A stretch of 16,049 bases of DNA from positions 1 through 16,049 of IMG/VR virus record IMGVR_UViG_2778261567_000016. One strand, given 5' to 3'. Every line of letters begins with the position of its first letter. Positions within the stretch are counted from its first letter, which is position 1. Below, piece after piece: positions 12,001-16,049 of this stretch. The DNA is from a virus (Duplodnaviria; Heunggongvirae; Uroviricota; Caudoviricetes). The position numbers were made by a program.

Positions 12001-15000
12001 CGGATGAAACACCCGGAAACGGCGCTGGTGGTGGTCGATTACCTCGGCCTGATTAAAACCCGCAGCACGGGGCGTCACGACCTTGCTGTGGGGGAAATCT
12101 CAAAGGGACTTAAAAGCCTGGCAAAATCCGGCGGTTTTCCGCTGATTGCTCTGAGCCAGCTCTCCCGTGGCGTGGAATCCAGACCCAATAAACGCCCCAT
12201 GAACTCGGACCTGAAAAACTCAGGGGAAATAGAGGCGGATGCAGACATCATTCTGATGCTTTACAGGGATGAGGTGTACAACCCGGAGACACAGGCGAGA
12301 GGCATAGCTGAAATCAACATCACGAAACAGCGTAATGGCACGCTGGGTACCATTTACCGGCGTTTTCATAACGGGCATTTTCTGCCTGTGGACCAGGAGA
12401 GTGCCCGGGTTCTTTCCACTCCCATGACGCCGGGCAATCCGCGCAGATACAGCAATAACCGCATGTCGGGTAGTAAAACGGAGCGTTTATTTTGAACAAC
12501 AGAACAACCACTGTTTCACCGGAACAACTTCGTCGGCAGGCGCAGGAGATGCTTCGTGATCTGCTGCAGGCAAAACATCGCACACAAAAGGCGGTGGATG
12601 AGCTGGTGGATTGCGTGGCGGAACTGGAAGGCCAGGTAAGCCAGTTTGAAACGCTGGTGAAAGAGTTTACTGCGTGATGGCTGAATTTTTTTCTCCTGCG
12701 TTCATGCAATACCGTTCGCTGAGGTGACCGTGAGAGCACTGCTGACCCCTGAAATTGCCCCGCGTATGGGGATCGTCTTGTTCAGACCCGGTTCAGAGCT
12801 GATGCCCCTGTTTATGCAGGGGCGTGTCCTGCTGGAGCCAGAGCCGGAACGTTATTCATCTTTTGCCAGTGGTGCCGTTCCGGCAGCATCACAACCGCTG
12901 GCGGATGATCCTGCCGTTCGGGCCGTGTTCCGCCATGAGGCGGTGATCCGTCGTGCTGGTGGCGTGGAATGCCTTGAGAGCTGGTTACTTCGTGAAAAAG
13001 GCTGCCAGTGGCCTCATTCCGGATGGCACAGCGAGAACATGACCACAATGCGACACGCGCCGGGCGCAATCCGTCTGTGCTGGCACTGCGATAACCTGCT
13101 TCGCGATCAGTTCACGGAACGTCTGGAGTCAATGGCAACGGATAACTGTGCCCGCTGGGTGTTGTCCGTAGTCCGTCGTGATCTCGGTTTTGATGACAGT
13201 CACGTTGTGACAATGCCGGAACTGTGCTGGTGGCTGGTTCGTAATGACCTGGCGGATGCCTTACCGGAAAGTGCAGCCCGTAAGGCCCTGAGATTACCGA
13301 AGCCTGTTTTGGCGTCTGTCACCCGGGAGAGTGACCTTGTGCCTTCGGTTCCTGCCACCAGCATTATCCAGGATAAAGCGAAAAAGGTGCTGGCGCTGAA
13401 AGTGGATCCGGAGTCGCCGGAGTCTTTTATGTTACGCCCCAAACGTCGTCGCTGGGTTAATGAAAAGTACACGTGCTGGGTTAAGACGCAGCCGTGTGCA
13501 TGTTGTGGTAAGCCAGCCGACGATCCGCATCACCTGATTGGTCATGGTCAGGGTGGAATGGGTACAAAAGCGCATGACCTTTTTGTGTTGTCTTTGTGCA
13601 GAAAACACCATGACGAACTGCATGCGGATACCGTGGCATTTGAAGAGAAGTATGGTTCCCAGCTGGAGCTGATATTTCGTTTTATCGATCGCGCGCTGGC
13701 GATTGGTGTGCTGTCCTGATTTTGTGGAGAAAGTTGATGCGTGATATTCAGATGGTTCTCGAACGCTGGGGAGCATGGGTTGCAAACAATCATGAGGATG
13801 TGACTTGGTCACCGATTGCTGCTGGATTTAAAGGACTAATCCCTTCAAAAGTTAAGTCTCGTCCGCAATGTTGCGACGATGACGCGATGATCGTTTGTGG
13901 ATGCATGGCCCGCTTGAAAAAAAACAACAGTGATTTGCATGATTTATTGGTGGATTATTATGTCATTGGAATGACTTTTATGAGTCTGGCGCGTAAGCAT
14001 AGATGCTCTGACACCTGCATTGGTAAACGTCTTCAGAAAGCCGAAGGGGTGATTGATGGTATTTTGATGATGCTTGATATCCGGCTGGAGATGGACAGAT
14101 ATGTAGAACGAATTATGTAGGTGCTTGACTAGATACATTGTCCGGGTCTATATTCCCACACATTAGAAATATTTGCGTCGGAATTGGAACACCGGACATG
14201 TAAGTTGGGTGTTGTTTATAGTCTAATTTATTCGATGTTTTCTGAGAGAGTTGTTTTTGTCCCTCTCCTGAAATTGTCATCGTTTTTTACATACTCAAAC
14301 GCATCTAGAATTAATCCAGATATACGCAGTATGTCTTCTGGATTTGTTATGTGGATTTTTCGACCATCAGTTTCCAGTCTAGCCCTTTTTATTTCGTTTA
14401 ATTGAATTTCGTTGAACGATATCGGTAGCAGGATAAAGGATGATTTTTTGTCGTAAAATCTTAAAATCCATCTATTACTTTTTCCATCTAAAAGAATTCC
14501 AAAGTATGATTCGGTATCTTTGTATTCAATATTATCTTCTGTTTGAATGATTTGCTTTATTCTTTCGAAAAGTTCTAATTCTTTCTTTGTGGTTATTATA
14601 TTGGGGTTATCTTCATTGACGATATCGGTATCTACAGAAGACTTTTCCACATCCTCTGCAGATTCTGTAGGTGGTTGTGTTGAAAGGCCAGAAACCACCA
14701 TGGCACTTACTGCTCGTTTTACAGCTTGTTTGACCAGTGGCGTGACAGATTCAAGGAATCGCTGGTTTAGTTGACGCTCGATATTTGAACGACTGGCAAC
14801 ATATCTGACAAATTCAGGATCAACCTCTCTAAGACTTGAGCTTATGGTTTTTGTGAATGCGTTTAGATAGACGCTTTCCTCTGCAAGCGTCCTTAATGCC
14901 TCTGGCTTAAATTTGTCATATCTGAAGCGGAATAACTGTGAAATATCTGAATCGTTAAGTGAGTCCATTCTTAATTTTAAGAAAGGAGACGAATCCATAA

Positions 15001-16049
15001 TGTTTTTTTGTTTTAGATCCGTAAAAAAACGCCATTCAATTCCATTTGTTATAGCAGAAATGGTGACTTCTGGGGTAGAGATTGAAATATCTAGAAAGCT
15101 GTGGGCAATGATTGTCAATTTTTTCTGAAAATGATTTTGCTTCAATAAACATCACGGGAACATCATGACAAAATAAAGCGTAATCAACTCGTTCGTTACT
15201 CTTTACCCCTGGGAAGTCTGCGCTATACTCTGCCTTCACTTTTCGTGGGTCGTATGGAGTAAAGCCTAAAATATCTAGAAAAGGCATGATTAATGCCTGT
15301 TTGGTTGTTTCCTCTGTGTTACAGAAGCATCCCATGTTTGCAACATGCTCTGCGTGAGATTTTAACTTATTTGCAAAGTTTTCCATGATATATCCTCTGT
15401 GTGTAGGAGTGTCTATTTTCATCATCGTTTCTAATGGCGTCAAGATAGCTTGACAACTGTAACGAGGCTGTTTGTTGTTTGAAGATTGCTTAAGAAACAT
15501 CAAGTTTCATTGGTCTTGCAATTCCATACTTAGATGGCTGTTCGTGTCTGAGGGGAATCTTATTTACCAGCTCCCGTTCAGTGGCTATATACGGCGCTCA
15601 AGTTATGAAAGCCTGATGTAAGTCTTAAAAATTTTTTCCAGAATGCTTTACGATCGTAAAAAAATAAATACCATGTTAAGAGTGGTTACTTCGCCACATA
15701 GCTTAAATCCGCCGTCAGGCGGGTTTTTTATGCCTGAAATCGGACCAGTACGTTAAACGCGCTGGTGGCGGTGAATACCTGTCTTTCAGCTTGCTGGCTT
15801 TTTCGACAAGAGTTATTGGTGTGTCACGTTAACCGGAAAAGGGAAAAAGACATGCTGAAACAGCAGGATATGACAGAAACCGCCAGAGTGGTGTTTAATG
15901 AATTAAGCGTCACCGAACCGGCGACAGTCGGGGAGATTGCGCAGAATACTTACCTTTCACGCGAACGCTGCCAGTTAATACTGACCCAGCTTGTTATGGC
16001 GGGTCTGGCAGACTATCAGTTCGGTTGTTACAGACGCCTTCAGTCATGA

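Follow-up and report, generated by a model that had tools for sequence, protein, structure and literature searches.

The HSDR_N nuclease domain is part of the HsdR subunit of type I restriction enzymes (e.g. EcoR124I), a protein of ~800-1100 aa that carries a superfamily 2 (SF2) translocase and is accompanied by HsdM and HsdS. A comparable N-terminal nuclease domain is found in type IIG/IIL enzymes such as BpuSI and DrdV, there combined with methyltransferase and target-recognition domains. The enzymes Mrr, MspJI and PvuRts1I/AbaSI consist of one polypeptide with a catalytic and a more variable sensor or binding domain, have neither a cognate methylase nor a conserved neighbour, and use SRA-like or winged-helix readers. 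A different arrangement is known from phage lambda, where rexAB, a classic abortive-infection-type system in a repressor operon, lies after cI on the same strand and before the early-left operon. The END nucleases join a PLD nuclease to an inactive EndoIII sensor domain, again with no methylase and no conserved neighbour (bioRxiv 10.1101/2025.03.31.646159). Here we analyzed a stretch of 16,049 nucleotides from a caudoviricete virus (IMG/VR record IMGVR_UViG_2778261567_000016, positions 1 to 16,049; referred to as the window), which contains a frameshifted copy of a gene for a stand-alone nuclease of 385 aa. Most relatives of this gene are located directly behind the repressor gene of temperate phages, and their products may protect the lysogen against other phages.

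Compared with these systems, the protein shares the HSDR_N domain with type I HsdR, but has neither the translocase nor the HsdM/HsdS partners. The methyltransferase and target-recognition domains of BpuSI and DrdV are replaced by a small C-terminal domain of the "double-wing" type. With Mrr, MspJI, PvuRts1I/AbaSI and the END nucleases it has in common that a catalytic and a more variable domain are joined in a single polypeptide with no methylase and no conserved neighbour. However, the sensor domains of END and of the other modification-dependent nucleases are unlike the double-wing, and the likeness is one of logic only. Most family members occupy the same place as lambda rexAB, whereas the rexAB proteins are unrelated to the nuclease and the copy of the window lies in reverse orientation in the slot between the antiterminator gene Q and the late genes.

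An earlier reading of the window, made from the sequence only (the sequence-only reading), had described a single minus-strand gene of sharply lower GC content after Q, which encoded an HsdR-N-like PD-(D/E)xK domain and required repair of its frame. All four points held. The gene starts with an ATG at 15386, ends with a TAA at 14228-14230 and is the sole minus-strand gene filling the interval after Q. A GAGGA ribosome-binding site is located 7 nt ahead of the ATG. The coding sequence (CDS) had a GC content of 36.7% (32% at third codon positions) compared with 46.5% for the whole window. It is the lowest-GC 1.16-kb stretch of the window, ~2.3 standard deviations under the mean of the rest (other 1.16-kb stretches: mean 47.6%, standard deviation 4.7, minimum 38.6%). 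Milder AT-rich patches were present at ~3000-3750 and 5000-5750.

The gene reads as two open reading frames (ORFs; 15036..15503 and 14228..15145). Alignment to the intact copy of E. coli S1-CAM-02-A (locus L001, WP_032188582.1, 385 aa, 99.7% identical) located one extra base, which turns CAA-CTC into CAATCTC outside any homopolymer run (Table 1). L001 and L017 lack this base, as do three complete E. coli genomes, and an intact 385-aa copy was found in three E. coli genomes; whether intact homologs exist had been raised as a check in the sequence-only reading. Since the inserted base truncates the protein at about residue 102, the gene is inactive in the window. This copy is a pseudogene, or possibly the result of a sequencing error, and ends after ~102 native residues. 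The catalytic codons are present and the frame breaks just past them.

Residues ~25-128 of the repaired protein matched Pfam PF04313 (HSDR_N) with E = 3.4e-13 and 50.3 bits (cutoff 25.1), and a second match was to PF13588 (HSDR_N_2; E = 3.9e-8). HSDR_N was matched by all 72 diverse family members as well. The N-terminal domain had the alpha/beta fold of restriction endonucleases. Five residues (D68, E82, K84, Q96 and Y100) were invariant in 45 relatives with 62-99% identity. Among 72 representatives at ~30% identity D68, K84 and Y100 were still invariant, and E82 and Q96 were conserved in at least 90%. Judged by the alignments, this set constitutes the PD-(D/E)xK triad (D68, E82-x-K84) together with a RecB/HsdR-type motif Q96xxxY100, and the intact protein is predicted to cleave DNA. 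In EcoR124I, mutation of QxxxY slows or abolishes cleavage (PMC2475608).

The nuclease domain is followed by a helical middle region, an acidic linker and the C-terminal domain. The linker is variable in sequence, with a pairwise identity of 22% in a close and 12% in a diverse set of relatives and a net charge of ~-6.5 and ~-4.3, respectively. The C-terminal domain was confidently modelled and is predicted to adopt an alpha-beta(4)-alpha "double-wing" or CyaY-like fold, not a nuclease fold. Its structural matches (scores in brackets) were the YdhG-like domain 9t2w (9.1), DR2400/DUF419 2a1v (7.2), YjbR 2fki (7.0), the C-terminal domain (CTD) of T4 MotA bound to DNA 5jlt (6.4), PSPTO_3016 2kfp (6.1) and the DUF1054 structures 3mqz and 2a8e (about 5). 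The fold is thus shared with YdhG-like (DUF1801), MmcQ/YjbR (DUF419) and MotA-CTD proteins. At the sequence level, a Pfam search with the C-terminal 132 aa gave nothing even at E <= 10. Searches with the middle and C-terminal segments and with the 72 family members found no family beyond the HSDR_N types; the YdhG-like and YjbR families were not matched either. YjbR-type domains are predicted DNA binders and were found fused to nucleases and EVE domains (PMC7641849). Furthermore, the 5-methylcytosine-reading McrB-N domain is said to resemble 2a8e, a DUF1054 structure printed as "3mgz" (probably 3mqz) and 2fki (PMC3424535). Identity dropped from the nuclease to the C-terminal domain both in close relatives (83% to 62%) and in distant ones (47% to 28%).

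An internal duplication of the nuclease domain had also been suggested, based on an echo between two sequence elements. Both strings, YFGILLDGKSNRWILRFY and TNGIEWRFF, are indeed present. The duplication itself did not stand: an hhalign comparison of the N- and C-terminal sub-profiles gave a probability of 0.55%, and the C-terminal fold is of the YdhG/YjbR/MotA type.

In a search of 1.84 billion representatives the family comprised 3386 clusters (50% identity) at E <= 1e-3 and 368 clusters at E <= 1e-30. Most members had 340-400 aa, the greater part of which could be aligned. Temperate phages of several phyla carry the family, among them phages of Clostridium, Enterococcus, Lacticaseibacillus, Corynebacterium, Fusobacterium and Porphyromonas. 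Within E. coli it is rare, any copy being present in 33 of 5426 genomes. In PHROGs the family corresponds to phrog_4225 "endonuclease" (E = 4.5e-147; category "DNA, RNA and nucleotide metabolism"). The RefSeq/PGAP name is "type I restriction endonuclease"; "predicted type IV restriction endonuclease" and "prophage Lp2 protein 6" are names used in some other records. The type I name is a misnomer, as the protein lacks a helicase and neither a methylase nor any other partner is conserved with it. Searches of the Protein Data Bank with the single protein and with a 72-sequence profile returned nothing meaningful. The main text of the DefensePredictor paper and that of a domain-centric NAR 2026 paper make no mention of HsdR-type domains. 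The gene had been called undescribed in the sequence-only reading. This applies to PADLOC-DB 2.0 and to the literature that we searched, while the family is already annotated in RefSeq and PHROGs. In one distant member, P0161 (509 aa), a TerD domain was fused to the N-terminal side of the nuclease, which is either a real fusion or a gene-calling artefact. No other fused domain was found in the longer family members checked.

The genomic contexts of the relatives were compared as well. In lambdoid prophages of Citrobacter/Kluyvera, Salmonella, Morganella, Xenorhabdus and Pectobacterium the nuclease gene shares its strand with a cI-type repressor gene (HTH_3, with or without Peptidase_S24) and starts 8-32 nt 3' of it. 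On the other side, ~350-530 nt separate it from the early-left genes (kil, gam, exo, recT). The nuclease of Klebsiella phage KpF5 follows the repressor on the same strand with a wider gap, and that of S. pneumoniae phage IPP25 is flanked by repressor and integrase. Among the 80 IMG/VR loci that were kept, the next gene upstream was of the repressor type and on the same strand in about 50 (27 Rac-repressor-like, 19 HTH_3+S24, 3 HTH_3/CI and 1 Arc). The rest include 21-22 loci with a baseplate context and one with the Q slot.

An E. coli allele with 78% identity (WP_000426903.1) sits between the baseplate genes of an unrelated prophage. Between the two E. coli alleles, DNA homology does not extend past the ends of the CDS, i.e. 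the gene moves as a bare ORF. The three kinds of slot (Q, baseplate and cI) had entirely different neighbours and no gene was common to all, which makes the nuclease a single-gene unit. In seven of eight Enterobacterales contexts its GC content was 5-14 points under that of the flanking prophage DNA; the exception was Xenorhabdus with 3 points. Neither hsdM nor hsdS was found nearby in the window or in any context examined, and in these contexts no methyltransferase adjoins the nuclease gene.

We favour the reading that the nuclease protects the lysogen, as a stand-alone restriction-like enzyme that excludes other phages, and put its probability at roughly 0.55. The intact protein would be made constitutively in the lysogen; expression there is expected because the gene is co-oriented with the cI-type repressor, follows it at 8-32 nt and lies ahead of the early-left genes. 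It would then cut the DNA of incoming foreign phages (superinfection exclusion). The C-terminal domain would supply target discrimination, and the identity falls toward this domain as one would expect of a specificity module. The target would be a DNA feature absent from host and prophage, e.g. modified bases, comparable to a type-IV-like solitary restriction. As the gene is not accompanied by a methyltransferase, the target is most probably DNA that is modified or foreign in some other way. That cleavage specifically depends on modification, however, we regard as doubtful. A further reading, which we hold to be less likely than not, is that the family represents an unrecognised broad class of single-protein restriction enzymes in the immunity regions of temperate phages, with the double-wing as a new reader of foreign or modified DNA or as a sensor of phage components.

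If lysogen protection proves true, the family would be a common rexAB-like exclusion determinant, carried beside the repressor by temperate phages whose hosts range from Enterobacterales to Firmicutes, Corynebacterium, Fusobacterium and Porphyromonas. The solitary nuclease-plus-sensor defences would gain a new sensor fold, and a widespread misannotation would be corrected. The family is convenient to test: it needs one gene, intact alleles exist in sequenced strains and the catalytic residues are clear. The earlier proposal of a defence gene gained contextual support from the relatives, most of which are directly downstream of and co-oriented with a repressor, but the copy of the window is a pseudogene and anti-phage activity would belong to its intact relatives.

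Several observations weigh against protection of the lysogen. No defence-protein model of PADLOC-DB 2.0.0 matched the intact protein or its E. coli paralog, and our literature searches found no paper on the family and no experimental evidence for any member. The window copy is frameshifted, not located beside the repressor and antisense to the putative late promoter, and the match to a promoter of its own (9/12) is at chance level. Another copy in the Q slot (L088, 3001-4157) carries an independent deletion of a single A in the A7 run at CDS nt 371-377, and the E. coli copy in NZ_OZ547461.1 (H140) is split by IS1. This recurrent decay suggests that the gene could be costly or dispensable. With a net charge of ~-1 the C-terminal domain is close to neutral, so that electrostatics lend DNA binding no support. 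The full-length model is moderate, with a predicted local distance difference test (pLDDT) score of 68, and does not fix the arrangement of the domains. Finally, orphan methyltransferases sit a few kb off in some prophages, which leaves room for a distant modification partner.

The nuclease could instead be an abortive-infection or toxin-type enzyme, restrained in the lysogen (e.g. through its acidic linker or C-terminal domain) until the C-terminal domain senses a phage protein or ligand, whereupon host and phage DNA would be degraded and the cell would die. The C-terminal domain is not basic, its closest fold (YdhG-like) is one with no proven role in DNA binding, and the linker is consistently acidic in spite of its variable sequence. 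The place of the gene in the repressor operon corresponds to that of rexAB, and a non-specific nuclease with no methylase needs some restraint. However, nothing points to a trigger, the DNA-bound double-wing of MotA-CTD is among the structural matches, and the layout of a catalytic and a small, faster-evolving domain suits direct restriction equally well. We consider abortive infection unlikely, though it is the alternative that survives best.

A role in the life cycle of the phage itself, i.e. in recombination or replication, degradation of host DNA or counter-defence, is quite unlikely. It would agree with the RecB-family QxxxY motif of the nuclease domain, with the PHROGs category and with the cI-linked copies adjoining an early-left operon with recombination genes of the Exo/RecT/Gam type. 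On the other hand, the short distance to the repressor stop and the gap of ~350-530 nt to the early-left genes are the layout of an operon expressed in the lysogen. In addition, the gene is patchy and rare in E. coli, and its occurrence in unrelated slots (baseplate module) with a foreign GC content is unlike a core life-cycle function.

It is still less probable that the gene is a selfish, free-standing homing-type endonuclease which cuts cognate sites lacking the gene and is of no benefit to host or prophage. The movement as a bare ORF, the presence in three or more unrelated slots flanked by conserved phage genes and the decay of several copies would fit such an element. But a constant link to the repressor in many genera, and to lysogeny modules of Gram-positives, is not predicted by site-specific homing, and the known free-standing homing endonucleases of phages belong mainly to the GIY-YIG and HNH families. 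Moreover, the full-length architecture is kept down to ~30% identity, which indicates sustained selection on the protein. A genuine type I R subunit, as suggested by the PGAP name and the HSDR_N match, is refuted by the absence of motor domains and HsdM/HsdS partners: the protein has only 385 aa, a helicase or translocase domain was detected in 0 of 72 members, and in NCBIfam nothing came near its cutoff, the type I endonuclease model scoring 17 bits against 729.

A membrane nuclease of the SNIPE type was considered as well and rejected, as the sequence on reading had no long hydrophobic segment and the domains differ.

Table 1. Features of the window around the nuclease gene, and contents of the corresponding slot in related loci
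Feature	Position	Strand	Evidence or remark
Integrase gene	75-1361		followed by excisionase
cI-like XRE repressor gene	5454-6143
DUF968 gene	12724-13719		directly 5' of Q; replication genes before
Antiterminator Q gene, left border of slot	13737..14120	+	Pfam Phage_antitermQ, E = 3e-54
Sigma-70-like promoter TTGACT-N18-TATATT, putative cognate pR'	14125..14154	+	best match in region, 10/12
Long imperfect inverted repeat	14134..14202		overlaps promoter -10 region; 3' of nuclease stop
Frameshifted gene for 385-aa stand-alone nuclease	14228..15386	-	ORFs, alignment to intact L001 copy, Pfam, PHROG 4225
C-terminal YdhG/YjbR/MotA-CTD "double-wing" domain, residues 260-375 (predicted)	14261..14608	-
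Variable acidic linker, residues 236-259	14609..14680	-
Helical middle region, residues 141-235, no family assignment	14681..14965	-	predicted helices, low model confidence
PD-(D/E)xK nuclease domain, residues 1-140	14966..15386	-
Frame-breaking extra base (T on coding strand), after codon 102	15081..15081	-
Catalytic codon Y100	15087-15089	-
Catalytic codon Q96	15099-15101	-
Catalytic codon K84	15135-15137	-
Catalytic codon E82	15141-15143	-
Catalytic codon D68	15183-15185	-
Promoter-like TTGACG-N17-GAAAAT upstream of nuclease ATG	15415..15443	-	9/12, chance level
Conserved block, right border of cargo	15640..15729	+	TTTACG-N16-TACCAT (weak promoter-like), small hairpin, GC-rich hairpin (15709-15722), then T6
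Conserved 65-aa gene, right neighbour of slot	15852..16049	+	annotated in L001, L003, L004, L005, phiP27
Slot state: HsdR-type nuclease gene	window, L001
Slot state: empty	L003		215-nt intergenic region
Slot state: ORF6N gene	L004 (2168-2755)	+
Slot state: 148-aa ORF	L005 (1963-2409)	-
Slot state: 409-aa MUG113/T5orf172 (GIY-YIG-type) protein	L098:2241-3470		Stx2e phage phiP27, gene L22

The interval between Q and the 65-aa gene is a variable cargo slot, for which five states were found in E. coli prophages and phages with closely related Q genes (Table 1). The nuclease gene is thus accessory cargo of the prophage (a "moron"), in reverse orientation between Q with its promoter and the first genes of the late region, in agreement with the sequence-only reading. 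The boundaries of the cargo are at ~14210 and ~15640. The nuclease was present in this slot in only 3 of 5426 complete E. coli genomes. As the copy is decayed, the window informs on the post-Q cargo slot of prophages of the Shiga toxin (Stx) phage type, not on an active function in this strain. The alternative cargo had features of its own. The ORF6N protein of L004 showed a partial and weak match to PDC-S05, a defence candidate of PADLOC (E = 4.8e-7), and the 148-aa ORF of L005 had no Pfam or PADLOC match. In the 409-aa protein of phiP27 the MUG113/T5orf172 domain is C-terminal, an outline loosely like that of SNIPE (DUF4041 + GIY-YIG), with no DUF4041 match seen.

It had been claimed that the lysis cassette normally follows within a few hundred bp of Q. 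In the Stx-phage-like scaffold, by contrast, ~4 kb of other genes lie between Q and the holin gene, even in the absence of the nuclease cargo. The same scaffold, with the 65-aa gene and the terminator block, is found in Stx2 phages and phiP27. Downstream of the slot, relatives carry the 65-aa gene and then a methylase, tRNAs and stx. In Stx-type phages the region between Q and the late genes holds stx genes, a methylase and tRNAs as cargo; in the window the cargo is no toxin but a nuclease gene in reverse orientation, with the putative pR' on one side and the conserved terminator block on the other. No toxin gene was present in the near-identical L001 prophage, and the window stops ahead of any position of a toxin locus. 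The product of the 65-aa gene had a weak TrmB-type helix-turn-helix match under the Pfam cutoff.

The promoter proposed directly after Q was recovered as well. It was kept in L004, which has the same 3' end of Q, and was absent from L003 and L005, where the 3' ends of Q differ. Such a distribution is as expected of a cognate Q/pR' pair, and the motif may function as pR'. The inverted repeat that overlaps it had a minus-strand fold of -31.8 kcal/mol (z = -5.05; 0 of 200 shuffles folded as well). Its arms GTCCGGG/CCGGAC become TCCGGGG/CCCCGGA in L004, with the pairing kept. The repeat could be a Q-binding or qut element, a terminator of the early operon or a stabiliser of an RNA 3' end; as a hairpin 3' of the nuclease gene it is stable but has no U-run.

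The conserved block at the right border was present in every slot variant (L003, L004, L005), in Stx2-converting phages and in phiP27. Its terminal hairpin folds with -20.1 kcal/mol (z = -4.2), and the loop of this terminator varies between loci with the stem kept. A terminator scan missed the block because the stem can extend into the T-run. The block could encode a short terminated transcript (6S/StxS-like) or be the pR'-tR' module of another Q type. If the putative pR' is active, late transcription would run antisense through the nuclease gene up to this block. A search of 13700-16049 against Rfam gave no match.

As a whole, the window represents the left arm of a lambdoid prophage that resembles Stx phages and is integrated beside mlrA (yehV), a known attachment site of Stx1-type phages. 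In L001 (99.5% identical) the Q gene is annotated as "antiterminator Q family protein". The early-left region contains a gene for an SPFH/Band 7 domain protein (2253-3080, minus strand; Pfam E = 5e-31) with no PADLOC match. The position directly downstream of the cI-like repressor gene, where most relatives of the nuclease sit, is filled in the window by a different gene (4614-5306, minus strand), which encodes a 230-aa protein with two HTH_3 domains. It is followed by short hypothetical ORFs and a 190-aa ORF (3450-4022) with no family match, in an AT-rich patch of 38-39% GC. The DUF968 protein also matched HNHc_6, a model of HNH-type nucleases (E = 1.4e-6). Its gene sits in the usual place of NinG or RusA, and L004 carries both DUF968 and RusA.

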